DNA of 63,992 bases, the filler included, from Gonapodya sp. JEL0774 (taxonomy: Eukaryota), in the NCBI GenBank assembly GCA_027604505.1. It is 5 parts of 5 records of this genome, joined end to end, with 100 filler letters (N's around TTAATTAATTAA, not from the genome) between each part and the next. Parts side by side here need not be neighbours in the genome. Positions count along the whole stretch, not along the records: positions 56,634 to 63,992 come from JADIIX010000507.1; 4 more parts are not named here. The stretch is one strand, 5' to 3'. Position 1 is the stretch's first letter; every line of letters begins with the position of its first letter. Of this stretch, positions 5,448 to 63,992 are shown piece after piece. Position numbers and translations under genes: made by a program. The notes below the pieces were generated by a model. That model was given only the letters and a program-made list of their open reading frames with translations. It did no database searches and was not told the origin of the DNA.

Positions 5448-6812
5448 CTAATTGTCTACAACAGGGGGTGCGTGGTAATCACGTTCCGCCTGGATTCGCA
5501 TATAGTCATCCCACATCCTCTGAGCTGTCTGCTCCCTCCCCACCACTGCTGGCTCCATATGGCGACATTGTGACTGCACCACCCTGCTCACTGTTGGGCC
5601 CACTGGGTATGGGTTAACGGCAACAAAGTCTGTGGCGATTGCGTCCCCAGCACCATGGGTCCGCTGATCCACAAAATTGTAGATCACAATACATGCCTGT
5701 AGAGTGAAGTACATGTACCACCCACCTTTCTCTAGTGCCTGTGTCCTGTTCTTAGCTATGCCGATCACCCACTCAACTATATTGCAGAGGGATGAGTGCC
5801 GCAGGTTGTACAGCTCTAGCAGTGTCTGAGGTCAATGTAGACACAGGAATGCATGAGTCAGTGAAATTTTCAACACTCACCTCTTTCCCCACTCTGCCCA
5901 CTCTTTGATGTGATACCGAACCCTGAACTTGTATGGGGTCCTCCACTGCATATTGTGCTCATATCCTGCATCCACAAGGTACCAGCGTCCATCAGGCACA
6001 TGGAGTCCACCTTGCTGAAGGGTGTCCGCAAGGACTGTATGGTTGTGTGCTGAGCCCTTGTACCCTGCATAAACATAAACAAATTGTCCGTCCAGATCCA
6101 CAATCGCGAGAACATTCTGTGAAAGAAAGCTCTTACAATTCCGAAAGGGAACCTGAGTGTCCCCTACAGGTAAGCGTGCCTCGATGTATGTACCGTCAGC
6201 AGCACCAAGGCACCCATCAAAATATGGGTAGAAACGAGGGTTCCCTGTGATTCTTTCTGACTCTGCAGTGTTTGCCATGGGTAGTACAGTATAGTCCTGG
6301 GCAAGAGAAGCAACAGCAGCTTGAGCAGCTCGGATGTAAGCTGTTACAGTGGACAGGGAGTGCTGGAAACGAGTCCGTATAGCCTGCATGGACACTCCTT
6401 GTCCCAGATACATCATTTGCTACTCTACGCTGGCCTCCACTGTGTCAATCAGTCGCTGTCACAAGCAAATCTCCTGGCAGAGGTCTAGGAAGACCTTTTG
6501 CAGCATCCTCAGATTGTCAAGGACCATCTCATCATGGCCCACACAGAATTTCCTGAGTCCAGGCCTTGCCCTGAAGCGCTGCATTGGTCATTGGTTGCGG
6601 AACTCAGCAAGGATGGGGAATCTAAAAAAGAGGCAGCAGCAGCGACAAGCACGACAAAGGCGGCACCAGTTGCCGCGACCATCCCAGTCCTGCCTTCCAC
6701 CTGATTGTTGATTCCACGTCCATATTTTCCACCATGATGCCAATCTGTGATGTGGGAGATGCGGGGTTTCTCGAGGGATTATGTGCGGGATGTTCAGCAC
6801 TTGCTTGACCAA
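5448..6812 (-). pseudogene. Harbinger (DDE_Tnp_4 / HARBI1-like) transposase, disrupted
   Basis: GCLGAADGTYI, SQNVLAIVDLDGQFVYVYAGYKGSAHN, YLVDAGY, HSSLCNIVEWVIG motifs; in-frame stops and frameshifts. Confidence 0.9.
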
Positions 6813-9004: not shown

Positions 9005-10800
9005 CTACTTGCTACTTTGTTCTTTGATCAGCTCCTTCTGAAGTTTGTCCAAGGACCATTTCTCATCCAGCCGACAAGTCTCAAGAGCTTGTACTGCCCT
9101 CTCCACACCTCCCTCCTTCTCCTGCAGGTCCTCAATGGCCTTGTACAACGCCTTCCACCTACAGGCAAATTGTGAATCTCCAACTCGCCATTGTGCTCCA
9201 AAGCACTTATCCAGCTCCTTCACTGGTGGGCCACCTGCGTATCCATCTATGTACTCGGACCAGCCATCGGGGACTGTCTTGATTGAACGATTGAACTTGT
9301 ACTTGGGCATTTCACCACCTCTGGGCCAACAAAACCCAGAAGTGGCCCTCTCAGGCTCTCCCTCCTCCTCCCCCTCGTTTGCAGCATTAGCACAATTTTG
9401 GTCTCGACCACTCCCAATCTGTTCCTGATCACGCTCACGTTGACCCACTTCACTTGAGTGGTTTGCAGCTGATTGGCCCTGTGTTCGTAGCTCGTGGCTT
9501 CCTCTACTGCTCTGACCCCCACTCCCCGCCAAAGAAGACGCATCAATTGCCGTCAGCGTCTCCGTAAATGAACGAATTCCATTTCCTAGTGCCTTCAGCA
9601 TGGTATTGTTCACTCGAACAAGAGACGAAACCTGATGATTCAAAGAGTCAACAGTTTCTATCAAAGGTTGGACTGTGCGCTGAACCGAAGAGACTGTGTC
9701 ACGTTGATGCGCAGCCATTGCATCCATGAGGTCTGGAACAGCTGTTTGAAGATCTGTCATGACTGGCATTTGAACACCAGGTGCTTCCATGGCTGCCTTC
9801 AACCTGTCCCGGAAGTTATGAAACTGTGGAGACTGAAAGACAGGGGTCTGAAATAAGTGATGGGATTCGTAGGCAGGGTTGCTCATCAAAACTGCCCCAT
9901 CTTGGAGGATAACAATGCGAAGCCACCGCAGTAGATCTAAGAAACCGATGGCTGCAAGATCCTGAGACACTCCTGTCCTACTTGTCACTTCAGCAAATAA
10001 ATCGTCGATCCCGGGAAATATCAGTGACTGCAGATCTTCATCGCGATGCCACGAACTCGGGGCACTGCGTAAAGTCCACTGCAACCTGCCCAGAATGAGA
10101 GTTCACTGCCCTCTTCCATTTTGAAGAGCTAGTGCTCCCTCTGTTTTGGTGGAGTGTCAATCCATCCTCTTGTTGTATCTTGTCCTCAGAGTCCATTTCA
10201 ATCACCTGATCGGCATGCTGTGACTGTCCTTCAGCAGTGGTGGGAGTTTCTCCATTCCCTGACTCAAACCTCCTCACTCCACTCTCTTCTCTTTCATTTT
10301 GTCGCCCCACACAACTTTCACCGTCCTGCGTGGGAGGTTCTACGTTTGAAATCAGCCGATGTTTTCGACTCTTCTTTGCGATTTGGAGCTCATTCCCATC
10401 CTCGTCCACAAAAAACTTTCGTGCAATACGATTGCCGCGAGGGATAATCACTTTCTCCAAGAAAAGAAGGAGCTTGGCCTCCGATACCAAGTCCCTGTCA
10501 GAGAAGTTCCGTTCCAGACACCAAGCCCCCCACAGCTTCTGCGTTGGTTCGTACACTTTCGTTGTTCCTTTTGGACGCTCTGCAAGCTTGTGTTCCACGG
10601 CATGCCTTGTAGCGGCTAGGAGGTCAGCTTCATTCGCAGCGGCTTGCGATAGGTGGGCAGACCCCACGGTTGCAAGTGTCTCTGAATCCAAAGCAGTCCA
10701 GCCGGGGGAAGAAGGTGATTCAGAATTTAAAAGTCGCCCAGCTGCTGCAACTGAAGCGGGCAGCAAAGCGAGTGACGAGACGGAGGGTTGGTTAGACATG
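9005..10800 (-). mobile_element. CryptonF-like (Ndc10/GCR1_C) element protein with most of the tyrosine-recombinase domain missing
   Basis: N-terminus RPKGTTKVYEPTQKLWGAWC..DLVSEAKLLLFL; Ndc10-II tail LIFPGID..GFLDLLRWLRIVILQDGAVL..HHLFQTPVF; C-terminal GCR1_C YKFNRSIKTVPDGWSEYIDGYAGGPPVKELDKCFGAQWR. Frame change near 10040-10085. Confidence 0.8.
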
Positions 10801-11412
10801 GTTTTCGGCGTTCTGTAGAAGGAAATGCTTCGATCTCGCCCATATGTAACTAAAACAACATCCAAACTTACATAATCAGCGGATTTTGTCACTGTTTCGG
10901 TATCCTTCCTTTCCGTTTCTTTTCCAGCGCAATGAGATTCGGCGCCTGCCTTTAAAGAACAATAGTTTCGCAAGTTGAAGCTCCTCGAACGCCTGCAATC
11001 TTGGAAGAGAGATCGAATTCCGTTTGACTTCCACGTAGTTGGCGAGATTGAAGACAAAAGTCCGTGTTTGGGTGGTGGGGAAAGGTCAGTGGCGTGTGGT
11101 TAGTAGACCACAAAGGTCACCTTGCGCACGATAATATTATTATTTACATAAGGTCATGTAACATGTTGGTTTCTAGAGCACTGTGGTGATGTTACCTGCA
11201 TGTTTATTAACCATGGGTCATGACCTGCCCTTGGTGACCCATGACCCAGGGTGCGCAGAGTGGGAGGTTCCTCGCTATTGCAGATTGACCCATGTGAACT
11301 CAAAAACTGTTAAAGAATGTAAATTCAAGACCTTTTGGCAAGTTCAAGTACTCAAAAAAATTTCCGCTGCGCGGCGCTTGAATTCAAGATTGGCCTCCCT
11401 GACACCGATCCA

Positions 11413-14149: not shown

Positions 14150-14249
14150 NNNNNNNNNNNNNNNNNNNNNNNNNNNNNNNNNNNNNNNNNNNNTTAATTA
14201 ATTAANNNNNNNNNNNNNNNNNNNNNNNNNNNNNNNNNNNNNNNNNNNN
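14150..14249. other. Artificial contig linker (N44-TTAATTAATTAA-N44)
   Basis: Six-frame stop linker flanked by Ns. Confidence 0.98.
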
Positions 14250-28332: not shown

Positions 28333-28432
28333 NNNNNNNNNNNNNNNNNNNNNNNNNNNNNNNNNNNNNNNNNNNNTTAATTAATTAANNNNNNNNNNNN
28401 NNNNNNNNNNNNNNNNNNNNNNNNNNNNNNNN
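28333..28432. other. Artificial contig linker
   Basis: N44-TTAATTAATTAA-N44. Confidence 0.98.
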
Positions 28433-38564: not shown

Positions 38565-40078
38565 ATGAGAGAGGTGGTGTGGTGGGGACAGGGCGAAACG
38601 GGTTTGAGGGTGGAGGTGCTGGGGCGAGATTAAGGCGGGTGTCGTAGCGGTGTGTGGAGGAGGGTGGGTTGAGTGGGAGTTGAGAGAGGACAGTGTGGTC
38701 GCGGGTGTCGCTGACGCAGGCCATAGGGAACGCGCCCGAGGTACTCGTACAGGTGTTCAGTCCCTAAATGAACAGTGGGAAGTGCGTGGGGGTTAATGAT
38801 CAATGCGGTAGAGATTATTGACAAACGGTGTGGAGATGACAAACAACATGCACTCACCGATCCCCACCCGTCCGCGAACTCCAAATTCACAAACACTGCA
38901 TCCCCCACTGTGATGTTCAATTCATCCGTGTCCTGTGCTTCAAAGTCTGCAATGGCGTACATGAGCCGCTGAACTGTAATGGGTGGCTGGGGTTCACGAG
39001 GTGGGGGAGAAGGTGGGAGGGGCGCGAGCTGGGTGCGGAGGGTCCCAACTTCACGTTCCAGCGCTGCATTTTTGGTGGAGAGGGTGCGGTTTTCTGTGGA
39101 GAGAGTGCGGTTTTCTGTAGAGAGAGTGCGGTTCTCCGCGGAGAGAGTGTGGTTTTCAGTCTGGAGGTCCTGGATTCCTGCTTCCAGAGTTGTGTTCCGT
39201 GCTTCAATGACTAAGTTCCTCCTCTGCAATTCTTCTGCGTTACTTTCAGCTTTTGCCGTCCTCACAGAAAGCTCCTCATTCCGCCTCTTCACTTGATCCA
39301 ACTCTGCACGTAGCTCCCTATTTTCGCGATCCTTGTCCGTGAGAAGAGTGAGAAGGACTTCAGTCGGTTGAGACGATGAAGAAGGTGCTGTGGTAGGTGG
39401 AGAAGAAGGTTGGGGGCGGGATGAGACTGGAGTGGGAGGGTTGGATTGAGGATCTTGGAGGGCTTGTAGGAATTGAGTGTCAGGAAGTTCGCGAGCAGCG
39501 TCGAGTTCCCTCTGGGTGACCACAGCCCCGTGAGAGAGGAGGAGGCAGACGATGGGGAGGGAAGGGCGAAGAGTGAAGGGCTCTACGAAGGCGTCCTTGG
39601 CCTCTTTGGGATCGATCAACAGGACGTTTCCACCCTTGAGACTGATGACGAGTTGGTTGTCAGGGTTTGGTGCATCCTCTGTGTAGCCGTGCCACCACGT
39701 CCACTCCCCTCCCCTCGCCACCGCCAGCGTCAGGGCACAAAGGAACAAACACGTCCGCAGCCAACGCTCCCTGTCCCAATCGTCCGCAGCCCACGATGGC
39801 CAGAGGTTCGCAAGTTTCCATTCACACACCCCGTTCGGATCGGCGCCTCCTTCCAGCAACGCCTTCACAACGTCCTCATGTGCATGCAGAATGCCCAACG
39901 CCAACACAGATTCGCACTCCACAGTGTCCGTTCTCCTCTCCCAAAATCCGATCTGGCGGCTCAACGTCACCCGCTTCCTGGAGTTCGGGTTCGCTCCTTC
40001 CGCTAGAAGCTGCCGGACCCGCTGACTTTGCCCGTTCTCCACGGCCTCGATCAACTGGATGTCGTGAGGAGTAGACAT
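38565..40078 (-). CDS. Ankyrin-repeat / coiled-coil / SH3 protein (3' end uncertain)
   Basis: LIEAVENGQSQRVRQLLAEGANPN, LGILHAHEDVVKALLEGGADPN; coiled coil; SH3 MYAIADFEAQDTDELNITVGDAVFVNLEFADGWG|..GAFPMACV. Confidence 0.8.
39070..39160 (-). repeat. Coding 21-bp tandem repeat, ~4 copies (heptad TLSTENR)
   Basis: GTGGAGAGAGTGCGGTTTTCT-like units. Confidence 0.9.
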
Positions 40079-41873
40079 GGCCGCTGTCGTTCGGATTGAT
40101 TGTCGTGATGCTTTGCTTTGTTTGCGTTTCGGGTTTGCGCTGTGACCAGCTGCGCCATCTGTTTGTGCGGACTTTCCAAACACTGCCACGAGGAACGATG
40201 GGAGCCTGTACGTTCTTGGTATATTCTCTTTATTGTATTGCGTACATAATACAAACGTGTCCGCTATTCCTGCTCCCGGGGTTGGTGCCACTCCAAACGT
40301 ACTTCCTGCTTCCTCCCCATTTGCCCTGCCTCCAACACGCTCTATCCCCCGGGGACCGCACAACGCAGAAGTCACCAACTTCAGTTTTCACCACCCTCCA
40401 GCCATCCCCCCGTACCCCCTTGAGCATCCCCCTCGCGCCACCCCTGGTGCCCCCCACGCACCACGTCCCTTGCGGCCGCCCCTCGCACCCCTCCTCACAA
40501 ACTGCCTCACGCGCCATCTCCACACCCGCCTCGGCAACCCGTGCCCCGCCCCCCTCCCCCCCCTGTCAGCGCTCCCGTCCCAGACCGCCCAGTCTCTCCT
40601 TTCACATCCCCCTTGCTCCCCCACCGCACAACGCACCTGCATCCCCCGCCGCTGTTCCAAATGCCCGAATTTCCGTGCTTGTCACTAGCTCTCCTCCTGC
40701 CCCCTGCTCAGACATGTCCCGCCCCATATAATATCGGTAGTGCTGCGTGATGGACCTGCTCCTTGACCGTTTCGGCACAACAGCCAGCAACTCACCTCCC
40801 ATGGGCCATGATGGGACATTCTTTTCGCCAACCACCGTGTTGGTCGTCCCTGAGCTCCCTGTCCGTGATATCCATTGCTGGTTTTCTTTCGTGGTCCTTT
40901 CCCGTAGGGCCTGCTACTCCACTCCGCTCCCCAGCGTGCTCCCCCGCCTCCCTATATCCCCGTATGTGTTGCTCCCAATACGAGGTCTCCACCAAAATAT
41001 GCCGTGTTCCTTTCTATACGTTTCATCCAAAAGGAGTGCAGCGTTCGCGAGCCATTGAACCCTCAAATGAAACCTACGGAATCCGTACCGCGCTCACCTC
41101 CACCTTCTTACCGCCCCTTATCCCTCACACACTCACAGTGGTCCCCCTCTCAGTTCCCGTTTCTGACTCCGTTTCTCCTTTGGCGTCCCGTTTCCAGGTC
41201 TCCTCGGTTCACGGTACAAATGGGCGGAGTTGACCGAATGGTACCGGCGGTGACGAAGTTGTGACAGTGCGCGTGACGGCGACCACGAGGAAAGGTGGTG
41301 ACTGAACGAGGGGAACATCCGCGGGTAGGGGGGCACGGATCTTTCTTTCGTCCAACGTGCGGAAGGTGGGGAGCGGCCGTTGTGGCAACTGAGACCGTCA
41401 TAAGGAAAATACATTAAAACGTACCCCCTGGCGTGTACCATGCTCTCAACATTCACTCGGATCGCTTGCTGTCCGCCCATTCCGAACCACCACGTTTCCT
41501 CCTCAGTTCTGGGCCCTTCCCAGGGTTCGCACCACCGCATGTTCTGCCACTCGTGGCGGCGCTGAGGTTTGAATGTACTCACCTTCGCCACTGCTCCTCG
41601 GCGCCAACAAGCCGCATCCGGGCTCTTCGTCACTACCTGGCCGCAGTGACGTGGTTCACCCTCGACAACTCGGACCTAGCGGTGACGGATCCGGCAGACG
41701 GGTAGATCGATATTGCTGAGGAGGAGTGGAGAAGGATCAGTGTCAGAGAGAGCAAAGGGGAAGGGATGTGCGTGATTGTGCAAGTGGGTGAGCCACACTG
41801 TGAGGAAAGCTATCACGGTTCACGGTGTTTAACTCACCTGTTGATTCGCTGATTGTGTCGTGTCCACGTAACC

Positions 41874-42501: not shown

Positions 42502-42601
42502 NNNNNNNNNNNNNNNNNNNNNNNNNNNNNNNNNNNNNNNNNNNNTTAATTAATTAANNNNNNNNNNNNNNNNNNNNNNNNNNNNNNNNNNNNNNNNNNN
42601 N
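42502..42601. other. Artificial contig linker
   Basis: N44-TTAATTAATTAA-N44. Confidence 0.98.
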
Positions 42602-56633: not shown

Positions 56634-57630
56634 CCCATATTAGCACCCATCACCATTGGTCATCATGGGTGAATATTCTAACACTCCCAAGCAATCTCAC
56701 ATCAACTTTGTCATGTTTCATGGTGGTCTTGAGAAGAAACTAGAGATTTCAATATGTAAAATGTGTGGAGTTACAAATTCAAAGGTTCGCCCAACCCATA
56801 TTAGCACAATCACTATTGGTCGTCATTGGAGGGTCTTTCAACACTTCTAACACTTCTAGCAACAACATTGATATGTAATGTGCTGGTTTTGAAACGAAAA
56901 TTGGGACTTATAAGTGTTTCAAGTACAGAGTTACAAATTCAAAGTTTTGGGCCATATCACCAGTTTGGGCCCAAAAACCCCTCCTTTCACAGGGGTAACT
57001 GTACTTGCCCTCTCACAAAAAACATTATACTACATATTGGGAGTGGGTTGGGAGTGTTTGAGGTAGTTTGGAGGGGGTCAAAAAAGAGTATCACAGTCAC
57101 GCACCCCTAGTAGTCTCACAGATCCAATCCTGACATGTAGGCTGTGATGGGGGCACTTTGGGGTAAGGAGGGGACAAATTCCGGCTCTCCACAGACCTTC
57201 TGACCACAAACCAATCACTGCAACAGCTTTACCATATATGGTTTCTTTATTCAGAAATCGGGAGAAGGCTCACACACTCTTCCCTGACATGCATGCTGAC
57301 CTGAGGGCCATGTGTTGTGGCGAGGGGACAAATTCCAGCTCCACACAGGCATCCTGGCAACAATCGAATTGCTCCATCAGCTTTTCCATATGTGGTTTCC
57401 CTGTCCAGAAATCATGAGGTTTGTTACAATCAATGGGTGCCAGGCTGGTGCTCGCACAAAGTTTGCCCCTGGCAGGGGACAAATTCCAGACCCCCACAGA
57501 GTTCCTGGAGACCAGCCAACCACCCCAATAACATTTCTATATATGGTTTCCTTGTTCAGAAAAGTTTTTGGGCAGATCAGAGGGGGTCAGTTTTGGGCCG
57601 TATACGTACACCACACCCTATTATCCTAGT
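56634..57630. repeat. CpG-depleted repeat/TE-like region with internal repeats
   Basis: CCCATATTAGCAC..CAYTATTGG-like unit twice; GGGGACAAATTCC three times. Confidence 0.5.
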
Positions 57631-57914: not shown

Positions 57915-60900
57915 CTAGCGGACTGTCCTTGTGATATTATTCGCTGGGAAGAGAGGTGGAGAGAGGGGGAGAAAACAGAGAAAAGAGAGAGAGGAGGGTA
58001 GAGCACTACACACACCACACCCCCTCCCCATCCGCCACTCCAACTCACCTGAGAGACGCAACGTAATCAGGCCGGTCAGATCCTTGAGCCTGTCCGCGCG
58101 GGCCTTGGCTCCCTCATCTCCAATCCTGTTATCTGGAGAATGGTAGACAATGTAACCATCAAATACATCGACCATGGAACAATCAGACCGAGAGACAGTG
58201 AGTAGCGTGTTCCGCAAGCCACCACATCACACAGCAAAAACCACACCCCTCCCCCATCTGCCGCTCCAACTCACAATTGAGATGCAAGGTAGTCAGGCTG
58301 GTCAAACCGTTGAGACCGTCCGCGAGGGCCTTGGCTCCCTCAGGTCCGATCCAGTTATCTGGAGAATGGTAGACGATGGAACCATCGAATACATCGACCG
58401 ATTGAAACCATGGTCGATGGAACAATCAGAGTCAATCAGATCGTGAGACTGTGAGTCGCGTGTCTCACACGCCACAAAGCCACAAACCAAAAACCACACA
58501 CCCTGCCCCTCCGCCGCTTGAACTCACCATTGAGATCCAACGTGGTGAGGCTGGTCAGATCCTTGAGCACGTCCGCGAGGGTTTTGGCTCCCTCGTCTCC
58601 AATCCTGTTCGCTAGACAATGGTAGACAATGGAACCATCAAATACATCAACCAATCGAAATCATCGACCATGGAACAATCAGACCGAGAGACCGTGAGTA
58701 GCGTGTGGCGCGCGCCACCACACCACACACCGAAAACCACACCCCCTCCCACTCTGCCGCTCCAACTCACACGAGAGATTCAATGTAGTCAGGCTGGTCG
58801 AACCCTTGAGACCGTCCGCGAGGGCCTTGGCTCCCTCGTGATAGATACTGTTATCTAGACAATGGTAGACAATGGAACCATCGAATACATCGACCGATCG
58901 AAACCATCAACCATGGAACCATCAGACCAAGAGACGGTGAGTAGCGTGTCGCGCGCGCCACCACACCACCTCCCCTTCCGCCGTCCCAACTCACAATTGA
59001 GATGCAAGGTAGTCAGGCTGGTCAGATCCTTGAGCCCGTCCGCGAGGGCCTTGGCTCCCTCGTCTCCAATCCTGTTATCTGGAGAATGGTAGACAATGGA
59101 ACCATCAAATACATCGACCATGGAACAATCAGACCGAGAGACAGTGAGTCGCGTGTTCCGCAAGCCACCACATCACACAGCAAAAACCACACCCCTCCCC
59201 CATCTGCCGCTCCAACTCACAATTGAGATGCAACGTACTCAGGCTGGTCGAACCCTTGAGACCGTCCGCGAGGGCCTTGGCTCCCTCAGATCCGATCCTG
59301 TTATCTGGAGAATGGTAGACGATGGAACCATCGAATACATCGACCGATTGAAACCATGGTCGATGGAACAATCAGAGTCAATCAGATCGTGAGACTGTGA
59401 GTCGCGTGTCCCACACGCCACCACACCACACACCAAAAACCACACCCCCTCCCCCTCTGCCGCTCCAACTCACATGAGAGATTCAACGTAGTCAGGCTGG
59501 TCGAACCCTTGAGACCGTCCGCGAGGGCCTTGGCTCCCTCAGGTCCGATCCTGATATCTGGAGAATGGTAGACGATGGCACCATCGAATACATCGACCGA
59601 TTGAAACCATGGTCAATGGAGCAATCAGAGTCAATCAGATCGTGAGACCGTGAGTCGCGTGTCCCACACGCCACCACGCCACACACTGAAAACCACACTT
59701 CCGCCCCATCCGCCGCTTCAACTCACCATGGAGACCCAACGTGGTGAGGCTGGTCAGATCCTTGAGAACGTCTGCGAGGGTTTTGGCTCCCTCAGGCCCG
59801 ATCCTGTTATCTGGAGAATGGTAGACGATGGAACCATCGAATACATCAACCGATTGAAACCATGGTCGATGGAACAATCAGAGTCAATCAGATTGTGAGA
59901 CCGTGAGTCGCGTGTCCCACACACCACAAAGCCACAAACCAAAAACCACACCCCCTCCCCCTCCGCCGCTTCAACTCACCATTGAGATCCAATTCGGTCA
60001 ATGTCGTATTGCCCTTGAGCCCGTCCGCGAGGGCCTTCGCTCCTTCAGGTCCGATCCTGTTATCTAGACAATGGAACCATTGACCGATCAAAAAAGTCAA
60101 TCAGATGGAGAGACCGTGAGTCGCTTGTCGCGCACACCACCACACCACACACCAAACCCCTCCGCACCCCTCTGCCGCTCCAACTCACAATTGAGATGCA
60201 ACGTGGTGAGGCTGGTATGGCCTTTGAGTCCTTGCGAGAGGGCCTTCGCTCCCTCGTCTCCGATGTAGTTCTCTGGGATGTAAGTGGGATGAGTCATCGC
60301 GGAGGGGGTACATGTGAGTGGTAGTAAGGAAAGGTAAGACGTGAGCGTGAGCTTGAGGGAATGTTTGGGAGGAGAAAGGTTAGACGCTGTTCACTCACCT
60401 TTCAAATTGAGCTTCTGTAGGGACGTGAGGCCCTTCAAGGCTTCTTTAAGTATGTTCCCAGCCTTTTCGCCGATCAAAACGTTGTCTGGCCGGGTCAAAG
60501 ATGTGAGAATGTTGTTCCCGCTGCTGTTCCCGACGCATGCTTCAAGGAAGTTCACCTTCAAGATCCAGTTCAATCAGCATAGTGGTTCTTGCTAGTGCAT
60601 CACCAAGGGCTTGCAGTCCTTCAACTTCAACAGAACTTCCTAAGATGTGAAGAGGTATCCATTGGAATTGATTTCCACCATCGGAGTACGGAAGCACACC
60701 GGCGAGATATGGCAATCCACTCATACGCACCCGAGAGATCCAATATTGTTAAATGAGAAGCCACCGTGCCCTGCTTCAGCGCATGAGCAAGCGCCCGTGC
60801 ACCCACGACACCAATAATTCGATCTAGAATCACGAAGAAATGTATGTAAATGTTGCATGGTAGTCAGCTGCTATGGCGCTTGTCCCCATGCAACGAAACA

Positions 60901-63178
60901 GCAAAAAAATGAGCTGTGGATCAAATTGTCTCACCTTTGAAACTAAGAGTGTTCCCATTGGAGGAGTTTGACAACGCATTTATCATGCTATCAATGCTGA
61001 TGGTGTCCATCCATGTCCCTGAAACGGTCATCCAGTGCGATCAGACGTTGGTAGATAAAAATAACATTGAGGACTCACTCACTCTTCTTCCCAATGTTTC
61101 GAATCTCGAGGATTGCCAAGGCTTTGAGAGGGTGACCATCGGGAGACAACCTTTTGACACGCTCAAACTCTGTCTTGCCATCGCGCTGGCGGTTGCAGGC
61201 GAGATAGGCTCTACCAAGGTGGAGCCGCCACTCCAGTGATTCCACGCTTTTGTCCTCCTCTTTTGAGTTTTCCTCTCTGGGTGGTTTGATCATCTCTTCC
61301 AGTATTTTCACCGTTCTGACCGCCTGTCCACCAGAAAAGCAGGCAAGGGCGAGTGCGTACCGCGCTTCCAGCACGAGAGTATCGTCTTGCGACTTGTCTT
61401 TTTGCACGGCTACAACGACTGGTGACGATTTTTCACTTTGTCGGTCCTGTTGTCCCCGTAGAAAACTCAAAATGGGAGGCAGAGACCAGCCGCCCTGAGT
61501 CGTACTTGAGGTAGAAGGCATGACAACAGTGTTATGCTTGAAATCCCTCCGGGGCAAGAGCAGAGAATGTTGTGTGACATCTTGCCTTCCTTTGAGGCAT
61601 ATTTCGAGTAAGGGGATTGCATCCTTTCCTCTCCCATCTTTAATCAGACATCGCCCAACCTGGAGGCACAGGTCGTACTTCTCAGTGAGCTCTTCGACAT
61701 CTTCCTCACTGAGAACTTTTGAAGCGTGCGGGAGGTACTCCCTCCATCGCTCTCGATTTTGCCATTCGTCTGTTGGAAATATCTTTAAGATGTGTTTGAT
61801 CGCCTCTTTCATCGTTTTGGAAAAGAGGGTCCCGTTCTGTGAGAGAGCGTCGTCAATTACTTGCCCACGTAGCCAGTTCCGTGCTGCCAGATGTACGAGG
61901 CGATGGAGATCGTATCGTTCCTCCTCTGAGCCCTTTACCTCCCGAGAAGACACAAACGCATACGATTTCAGTATGCCGATGGTTGTATCTATGTCCTCTT
62001 CTGGTTCCATTGGCAGAATACTTTTAGGGATCGCCTTCCATTCTACACATCCCATGAACGCAAGAAGCTTTGCAGAGTTTCGACTTTCCTTGGACATCTG
62101 CCCAAACGAAATTAACCACGTTGTTGCTACTGATTTCTGAGATTTCTTAGAACTTGTGTCATCCAGGAGCTTAATCACTTGTTCCTCGTTAATTGCACGC
62201 ATCTTCTCCAAGTACTTTTTTATGGTGACTCGTTTAACGTTAATGAAAGAGGTTACCTGAGAGATCGCCAGTGGAAAGTATGCGAGCTCATTCAATAGCT
62301 CTCTTAAGCTCGAATTGTCGTCGAGCTCGTGTTTGGGTTGGACAGAGTTCCTGAAAAGTTCGGTCGCGTCTTCGTTACTCATTCCTTCCACATCAATGAA
62401 ATGATGTCCCGTTAGTCCGTTTGCCATTTCTCCATAGCGGGTTGTAAACAGAAGGAGACCGTGTTTGCTGTGTGGAAGGTAGTAATGAATACCGCGTCCC
62501 TGCTTGGGAAACACAATATCTGCATCATCGGCATTGTCCACAATCAAGAGCCACCGTCCGGCTGCCTCCTCGCTCAAGTACCGCGTGACAACCTCCTTGA
62601 CATCTTCCGTTTCCCCTATCATATGAGAGATCCCAACCTTTATAGCCACCTCCTTGCAGGCCTGCTCAAAGCTCTCCATACTAAGCGCTGGAAACCAAAA
62701 GATTGAGTAGTCTTTATATGTGTCCTCCACACTGTACGCAAACTCCAGTGCGATCTGCGTCTTCCCGACACCACCCAGTCCCAGGAGAGATAACCTCTGA
62801 CAGTCTTTATTGTCGAAGAGTTTTCTTGTCAAAGTGGCGAGTATGTCGCGACGGCCCACAAACTCTTTGTTCCTCGAAAAGGGAATGTAGTAGTGGGGTG
62901 CAGGGGAGGAGCCAGGAGTCGCGCTAACTTTGGATTGTGAAGCACTGATGGCATTCATGATATTACAGCGGTCAAAGGTACGGACAGTAAGCACGCGGAG
63001 CTTTGAATGGTCGAGCTTACCTCGAGCCTTGGTGGATAGAATTGCCCATGTGTAAACGCGCATTGCCGTCAATGTACTGGGCCCCTACTGAGTAGGTGAT
63101 ATTATTCACTGTTTGCGGAGATAGCGACGGACTCTGAAGGTGTGGTTCAGCAGCAGTAGCGGTGTCGGACATCGCCAT
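57915..63178 (-). CDS. NLR-like STAND protein: HET-s-like amyloid motif - NB-ARC - TPR-like - 14 LRR exons (~1078 aa, 17 exons)
   Basis: Manual GT-AG splice model: 63178-63021, 62944-61083, 61018-60935, 60823-60731, 60639-60556, 60485-60399, ten 84-nt exons (60272-60189, 60063-59980, 59810-59727, 59557-59474, 59304-59221, 59078-58995, 58854-58771, 58611-58528, 58358-58275, 58132-58049), then 57943-57915; 3237 nt, open throughout. Walker A GLGGVGKT, Walker B LLIVDNADD, LLFTTR, FPLAI, YDLHRLVH. Confidence 0.82.
58049..60272 (-). repeat. Tandem exon+intron array, 10 units of 209-253 bp, each with one 28-aa RI-like LRR
   Basis: Consensus xNRIGxEGAKALADGLKxxTSLTTLxLx; the introns are also homologous to each other. 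Confidence 0.95.
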
Positions 63179-63492
63179 ATCCAAGAAGGGAAGGGATTTG
63201 GAGTGGGGGAATGTGAGTGGTATTTTTCGGAGCCGACTGGCACAGAGCCTAGAAAACCGTGAGGTAAGGAATTCAAAAGAGACACGGTCCCATCCACATC
63301 ACTTCAGAGCTGACAGTGGAGTGGGATCGACACCAACAAGGCCCGACAGGTTTTCCCCTTCGCAGTCCTTGGAAAGAGTCATGCGACTGAACTTGATTAG
63401 GGTGGCGCAGCTACTTGGACCTCCATCCCACCTCCCAAACTGCACAGAGCAATCGTTTCCCAGTCACAGTAGGATTATCATCGCCCTTTATC

Positions 63493-63609
63493 ATGGCTGA
63501 GGCTTTCGGGATCGTCTCGGGAGCTGTCGGTATCGCCGCCACCTTCAACACCTGTCTCGAATGCTTCAACCACAAATCACAGATACTTTCGAAATTTAGA
63601 AATTTTTGA
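63493..63609 (+). pseudogene. 5' fragment of a HET-S-like HeLo-domain gene, interrupted after codon 26
   Basis: MAEAFGIVSGAVGIAATFNTCLECFN resembles the recalled HET-s N-terminus (MSEPFGIVAGALNVAGLFNNCVDCFEY). Similarity stops abruptly at 63570 with no GT donor. Confidence 0.75.
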
Positions 63610-63992
63610 TAAGATCAGATCAGAAAATGAAAGTACAGGAAAAGATTCAGGACTTGCACCTGAGAGAATTCAGTCGGAGAGACTTTAGGGAATGAAATCT
63701 GAGATGTTGTTCTCTGAGACAGTGTCGTAGAAGTGCAAGTATGAGGGCGAACCAGTCACGATACGTCCCGCAATGGTCCCACGGACAAAATCCGTTGCCT
63801 CGGTAAGTTTTCTACTTGAATTGACCGAGCTCTTTTTGTCTTTTTCCGCTCTTTTCCCTCTTCCTACTCTCAGACTGCTCGGTTTCCCCCCACTCTCGCT
63901 CGCCCCTTCCTCCACCACGGAACCTTTATTGTCGCACTCGAAAGCAGAACATGCATCGCCGCATCTCGTTTTGTAGCCTCGTTATTTCTCCA

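Follow-up and report, generated by a model that had tools for sequence, protein, structure and literature searches.

A predicted amyloid-tagged NB-ARC receptor with leucine-rich repeats beside a truncated HET-S-like gene in the assembly of Gonapodya sp. JEL0774

In Podospora anserina the NOD-like receptor (NLR) NWD2 carries a motif that templates the prion domain of HET-S, upon which a pore forms (PMC4344463). A locus related to this system is found in a stretch of 63,992 nucleotides (the window) from the assembly of Gonapodya sp. JEL0774 (GCA_027604505.1), which is placed in Monoblepharomycota. It consists of a receptor gene with a predicted HET-s-type motif, an NB-ARC domain, tetratricopeptide repeats (TPRs) and leucine-rich repeats (LRRs), and of a truncated HET-S-like neighbour. 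Judged from its sequence, the locus resembles an nwd2/het-S system on the receptor side and does not qualify as a complete pair. The explanation we favour, at a probability of about one half, is that both genes came from Pezizomycotina and that the predicted amyloid-tagged receptor signals in trans to an effector encoded elsewhere. The wider proposition, that a complete module was taken from Pezizomycotina, its receptors being rebuilt, possibly twice, as NB-ARC-LRR proteins whose variable sensors have one exon for each repeat, and passing their signal even now to an intact effector of the HET-S-like type, falls somewhat short of even odds. The initial annotation had proposed a working receptor/executioner pair at the locus, which is not what the DNA holds: the effector is a stub of 27 codons without a HeLo body or a prion-forming domain.

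The receptor gene was modelled on the minus strand (63178-57915) as 17 exons, whose 16 introns are all GT-AG and which yield one open protein of 1,078 residues; the splice structure is a prediction throughout, as are the NCBI models of the paralogues (Table 1). In the model the HET-s-type motif is followed by NB-ARC, decayed TPRs and about 13 ribonuclease inhibitor-like (RI-like) LRRs. Intron 1, of 76 nt and phase 2, restores the frame into exon 2, and the 15 exons after exon 2 are all joined in phase 1 via GT-AG introns; the NCBI model of P0001, a paralogue of 90% identity, joins exons 2, 3 and 4 in the same manner. The NB-ARC gene starting at ATG 63178, as first described, is borne out by a PF00931 match of 55.5 bits (cut-off 23.5; approximately 62841-62107) and by intact Walker A and Walker B motifs. 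Between this domain and the LRRs, matches to TPR_14 and TPR_19 lie below cut-off, and a TPR profile made from relatives scores 1.9 bits. Orthology to NWD2 was rejected, as NB-ARC, TPR and LRR were found instead of NACHT and WD40. Inheritance of intron 1 from the donor was likewise dropped, the nearby intron of the relatives looking like phase 1 where readable, versus phase 2 here.

The motif in exon 1, YSVGAQYIDGNARLHMGN, agrees with seven of the nine defining positions of the published 21-residue HET-s consensus (PMC3321046), namely G10, R13, the hydrophobic positions 3, 14 and 16, G17 and N18. When exon 1 was shuffled 20,000 times, 27 of the shuffled sequences did as well, and at least seven positions were matched by 3 other 18-mers among 72,157 in six frames. 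The HET-s-like motif reported at the start of the NLR is thereby upheld, its joining to NB-ARC being predicted. A profile of the HET-s-related amyloid motif (HRAM), built on 240 repeats from 120 HeLo-HRAM proteins, was run across six frames of the whole window and listed the exon 1 motif as its sole match, a weak one; a two-repeat prion domain was found nowhere in the window. PF11558 does not match exon 1, which says little because this profile also misses or under-scores genuine HeLo-HRAM proteins. In the NCBI models of P0001 and P0004 the start falls within exon 1 but out of frame, and translation runs on across the intron, so that the motif is lost; shifted by one base, their N-termini are weakly compatible with its second half, given ambiguous codons. 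Such mis-started public models may be the reason why surveys of annotated proteins would miss the family.

Table 1. Positions of the features of the locus and of the artificial linkers in the window
Feature	Position	Strand	Basis or remark
Exon 1, 52 codons, holds amyloid-like motif	63021..63178	-	GTAAGC donor; predicted splice
HET-s-related (HRAM-like) R0 motif, residues 29-46	63041..63094	-	consensus, HRAM profile
Exon 2, 1,862 nt, open: NB-ARC, helical region, 2-3 decayed TPRs	61083..62944	-	PF00931, motifs
Exons 3-6 (84, 93, 84, 87 nt; phase 1-1): LRR cap and three divergent LRRs	60399..61018	-	exon model
Exons 7-16: ten 84-nt exons, one 28-residue RI-like LRR each	58049..60272	-	LRR_6, exon model
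Last exon and stop (predicted)	57915..57943	-	exon model
Spacer between the two ATGs, 314 bp	63179..63492		sequence
HET-S-like stub, 38-codon open reading frame	63493..63609	+	codons 1-27 match HeLo N-terminal hydrophobic helix
DNA beyond the break	63574..63992		without HeLo homology; GC 0.56 to 0.31
Artificial linker, left edge of fifth contig	56534..56633		genes on its left not physically linked to locus
Other linkers	14150-14249, 28333-28432, 42502-42601		identical artificial sequence

The LRR sensor that had been attributed to the NLR is present in two blocks of exons under the predicted splicing. Exons 7-16 form a tandem exon-intron array with a period of about 253. Nine repeats were compared, with a nonsynonymous divergence (pN) of 0.16 below a synonymous divergence (pS) of 0.30, values that are descriptive, the repeats not being independent; the excess of pS over pN indicates that the LRR exons are under coding constraint. 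Several scaffold residues are invariant across the nine repeats despite silent changes. One exposed strand position reads D/G/N/H/H/N/D/H/R and is the only one of six exposed positions to show replacements without a silent change; positive selection at these six is not demonstrated (pN 0.31, pS 0.46). In the last LRR a core Leu has become Arg.

Opposite the receptor, ATG 63493 on the plus strand diverges from ATG 63178 on the same contig, as originally stated; there is no gap between them, and the 314-bp spacer is presumed to be a bidirectional promoter. The HeLo-like start seen there holds for codons 1-27, which match residues 1-27 of HET-s (PDB 2wvn, E 4e-5), are 81% identical (22/27) to the closest Pezizomycotina proteins listed and include a hydrophobic helix with a best 19-residue hydropathy of 1.56. 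Beyond them the expected gene does not continue: homology stops near 63573 and the frame ends at a stop codon (63607-63609). Of the profiles considered at the outset PF00931 alone passes its threshold, Pfam HeLo (PF14479) giving 21.9 bits on the stub, just below the cut-off of 23.2, and PF11558 nothing. The remainder of the HeLo gene with its two-repeat HRAM, which had been expected further along, was not found: the 420 bp to the window end contain neither a HeLo body nor a prion domain by hidden Markov models, tblastn with six homologues or frameshift-tolerant alignment in all frames and on both strands. There is no GT donor between stub codon 25 and the stop, and continuation through a frameshift was rejected, as the best extension score of about 6 was matched by 2/60 and 6/60 shuffles. 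A word-based search with the stub found no match, but it also missed P0122 and P0123, both recovered by a representative search, and was set aside. An intron-like stretch lies downstream on the plus strand (GTAAGT at 63803, a pyrimidine tract and AG at 63873), and ATG 63951 opens a plus-strand frame that runs off the window end and may mark where an unrelated gene begins.

The conservation of 22 of the 27 residues up to an abrupt break suggests that the stub was under selection until recently, and the near-perfect match of the stub set against an NB-ARC core that has drifted to 50% identity or less suggests an intact effector until recently. A HeLo-HRAM search seeded with the stub scored 7,995 candidates and gave 252 matches, of which the best 120 are listed and 132 are not. 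Among the 120, the closest to the stub come from Aspergillus, Penicillium and Xylariales (21-22/27 identical) and form a HET-S-like clade of 15 members (SH-aLRT 93) in a quick tree from which the first 30 residues and the prion domain had been left out. To this clade, here labelled 'SxG', belong 13 of the 17 repeats that best match the receptor's motif among the 120 proteins, and motif and stub indirectly agree on it (Spearman 0.56 over 120 proteins that are phylogenetically non-independent). The clade is present by construction, given the seed; the motif's preference for it is not. Motif and stub thus look as though they point to one HET-S-like subfamily, which would fit a cognate pair. The SxG proteins of Xylariales and Eurotiales (P0134, P0137 and P0140 among them) share the first 27 residues with the stub at 21-22/27 and have repeats resembling the receptor's motif; they are about 295 residues long with two repeats, whereas the Gonapodya locus keeps the first helix only. 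The closest true homologue of the stub is P0122 (KAJ1559261.1), a partial HET-S-like protein from a 2.8-kb contig of the chytrid Cladochytrium tenue, which is 55-59% identical to Pezizomycotina proteins and represents a second transfer or a contaminant.

Relatives of exon 2 were sought among 7,998 scored candidates, and the best 120 of the 2,179 passing were listed. The closest are six Gonapodya sp. JEL0774 proteins, one (P0001) at 90% and the others near 50% identity. Of the remaining 114, 49 carry an organism name, and all 49 are what we take to be Pezizomycotina; the best identity over the NB-ARC core among these listed non-Gonapodya relatives is 50%. In a FastTree phylogeny of the NB-ARC core (121 rows, midpoint root, no outgroup) the window gene and the six Gonapodya proteins form one clade (local support 100), which sits on long branches among Pezizomycotina-type rows and adjoins unnamed environmental proteins. 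The suspicion that the locus lies outside Dikarya is therefore sustained by the names of its nearest relatives, but the Pezizomycotina-type NB-ARC and stub speak for transfer or contamination and not for an ancient non-Dikarya system. Comparison of the sequences makes transfer of the module from Pezizomycotina into Gonapodya likely. A profile of the window's LRRs matches P0002 and P0004 and 0/114 of the non-Gonapodya relatives listed, LRRs being restricted to Gonapodya copies among these relatives. P0002 and P0004 retain two clear TPRs ahead of their LRRs, and their cap and repeat type differ from those of the window gene and P0001; the two types, which fall in two subclades, may reflect two separate LRR fusions. 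The Gonapodya PNP_UDP-NB-ARC protein P0007 branches as sister to the proteins with LRRs, which gives the clade at least two N-terminal signalling types. Eight NB-ARC-related metagenome loci, inspected by eye, showed no amyloid motif and no HeLo neighbour, and at the N-terminus six of the eight were PNP_UDP-, HET- or hydrolase-like. Identity of exon 2 to P0002-P0005 is 72-82% over its first 150 residues and only 32-48% over the next 150 (62944-62500, minus strand); exchange between paralogues is a possible cause, although the contrast recurs, less pronounced, in distant relatives.

Under the favoured explanation, an nwd2/het-S-type pair would have moved from Pezizomycotina to Gonapodya, where the NB-ARC-TPR gene would have multiplied while its TPRs decayed; symmetric phase-1 LRR exons would have been added and tandemly amplified as a new sensor, and the effector beside this receptor copy would have been cut recently. 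By analogy with NWD2 (PMC4344463), a ligand would bind the LRRs and NB-ARC would oligomerise. The clustered N-terminal motifs could then fold into a beta-solenoid seed. A HET-S-like protein whose two-repeat prion domain was converted by this seed would release its pore-forming helix, and a pore would form. As the adjoining stub has no prion domain it is not the target of this seed, and signalling would have to act in trans, an intact effector perhaps persisting beside another receptor copy. Each of these steps is modelled on NWD2; the parts list alone (open frames, domains, the motif, how the two genes adjoin, the truncation and the closest relatives) was observed.

Several points weigh against this explanation. 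The exon 1 motif misses N1 and hydrophobic position 6 of the consensus and scores only 9.6 bits with the HRAM profile; among 5,000 shuffles of exon 1 (3,798 reported, 99th percentile 3.8) the maximum was 11.9, so that at least one exceeded it. No Gonapodya HeLo-HRAM protein occurs among the best 120 of the 252 matches, nor among the 12 matches of a representative search. The best 120 relatives of the receptor include none from G. prolifera, the midpoint-rooted tree does not prove nesting within Pezizomycotina, and the locus contig bears no host marker gene within the window.

Should the effector have been lost from the whole genome after the same transfer and LRR fusion, the receptor would be an orphan or serve another partner and its motif would be a relic. 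The missing Gonapodya HeLo-HRAM protein among the matches listed, the deviating motif positions 1 and 6 and the Leu to Arg change in the last LRR all fit such a history, and nwd2 is likewise inactivated in natural het-s isolates of Podospora (PMC4344463). We nevertheless regard it as unlikely: the motif core is intact and apparently kept in paralogues, the stub has barely diverged, and annotators who missed exon 1 could plausibly have left an effector unannotated too. The LRR fusion itself holds whether the effector survives or not. A pair that is intact in the organism, the break near 63574 being a misassembly or lying in only one allele or duplicate while the locus itself is whole, would account for the sharpness of the break and its GC step in a fragmented assembly that also holds a 90% paralogue or allele on a 9.8-kb contig. 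This is distinctly unlikely, given that the sequence crosses the break without an N gap and that the matches listed include no close protein of full length.

It is improbable that the locus contig derives from a contaminating ascomycete, in which case nothing here would lie outside Dikarya. The NB-ARC, the motif and the HeLo stub are all of Pezizomycotina type, and a contaminant's own gene expansion would also give one clade. Confirmation of the taxon through SEY1 and RPS2 fell through, both genes lying on other, unlinked contigs: the window is made of five contigs, with one and the same linker (44 N, 12 nt, 44 N) at each of the four joins, contigs 1-4 measuring 14,149, 14,083, 14,069 and 13,932 bp. 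The entire locus lies within the fifth, which starts at 56634, extends 7,359 bp to the window end and probably continues past it. As unrelated contigs are joined, arguments from neighbourhood across them are invalid, and SEY1 and RPS2, which like symplekin and an MFS gene sit on contigs other than that of the locus, are unable to place it. Tetranucleotide correlation and third-position GC did not tell host from contaminant, and comparison of the RPS2 exon with PDB, itself a matter of another contig, did not separate fungal groups. Against contamination, however, stand the six Gonapodya-named relatives on contigs of six different sizes (9.8-39.9 kb), the LRR fusion, which occurs in 0/114 other relatives listed and is not reported for 5,616 fungal NLRs in the accessible text of PMC4986451, and the 16 predicted introns with one repeat per exon. 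GTGAGT donors, also frequent in genes of the other contigs, lend weak support to a host origin. Even in a contaminant the NB-ARC-LRR architecture would still be new for fungi.

The LRR exons might also be a separate gene or remain unspliced to exon 2, in which case the receptor would be an ordinary motif-NB-ARC-TPR protein. Read-through of exon 2 meets a stop a few bases after the donor, and the union of NB-ARC and LRRs in one polypeptide occurs in the splice model and in annotated paralogues, both predictions. This alternative is very improbable, since donor and phases fit all along the model and NCBI, too, models P0001, P0002 and P0004 with NB-ARC and LRR in one gene, albeit again as predictions. 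That the system is ancestral in fungi and vertically inherited in zoosporic lineages is barely credible: a HET-S-like fragment is annotated in Cladochytrium tenue (KAJ1559261.1), but identities of 50% in NB-ARC and 22/27 in the stub tie the locus to a single subfamily of Pezizomycotina, the named matches listed hold no further early-diverging fungus, and zoosporic lineages have few or no NLRs.

With nwd2/het-S of Podospora (PMC3321046, PMC4344463) the locus shares divergent adjacent genes, a HET-S-like N-terminus on the neighbour and, in the receptor as predicted, one HET-s-type motif at the N-terminus where an effector domain would otherwise stand. The two differ in that Gonapodya has NB-ARC, decayed TPRs and LRRs where Podospora has NACHT-WD40, an effector reduced to its stub, and a host that is probably non-Dikarya. 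Closer in domain content are the HeLo/NB-ARC-TPR pairs of Arthroderma (PMC3321046) and the 68 amyloid-NB-ARC-TPR NLRs of Sordariales (Table S9, PMC12258605). The receptor has in common with such Pezizomycotina NLRs the NB-ARC core at 50% identity or less, an N-terminal module on its own exon and the 42-residue TPR type, the latter seen in the Gonapodya paralogues; unlike them, with LRRs in none of the 114 relatives, it has reduced, decayed TPRs and, after them, an array of RI-like LRRs. Plant NB-ARC-LRR and animal NACHT-LRR proteins share the order of a NOD domain followed by LRRs, and the P0004 repeats match ribonuclease-inhibitor-type repeats, including those of axonemal and NLRP proteins. 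However, the Gonapodya receptor adds remnant TPRs and an amyloid N-terminus to an NB-ARC of fungal type; its NB-ARC-LRR architecture was presumably assembled independently.

The accessible text of a survey of 5,616 NLRs from 198 fungal genomes gives no LRR and no chytrid matches (PMC4986451), and a 2025 review describes nucleotide-binding site (NBS)-LRR proteins as apparently absent from the fungal genomes analysed (PMC12881547). A screen of 122 proteomes, G. prolifera included, permitted LRR as the C-terminal repeat; 'LRR' is absent from the 12 supplementary files searched, and the remaining files could hold an LRR-bearing fungal NLR (PMC12258605). Fungal amyloid motifs are placed in Ascomycota and Agaricomycetes (PMC9815663). 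A literature search, with most subscription journals beyond its reach, found no description of a Gonapodya amyloid, NLR or NB-ARC family. The most solid novelty is thus the predicted motif-NB-ARC-TPR-LRR architecture in a Gonapodya-labelled family. If true, the family would break both patterns: fungi would possess NBS-LRR receptors, the architecture would have arisen independently once more, and amyloid signalling of the HET-s type would extend beyond Dikarya. An immune module would be seen to have crossed phyla and had its sensor swapped, with a trace of the former TPR sensor left in place, and the symmetric 84-nt exons open repeat shuffling and alternative splicing to direct test.

Elsewhere in the window, degenerate direct repeats of about 155-160 bp (approximately 69% identity) occupy 56634-57562, past the 3' end of the NLR gene. 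The minus strand of contig 1 carries a DDE_Tnp_4 transposase fragment (5880-6419) and an NDC10_II/GCR1_C gene (9008-11099), the latter presumably Crypton-like, and contig 3 encodes on its minus strand (38633-40387) a protein with ankyrin, coiled-coil and SH3 regions.

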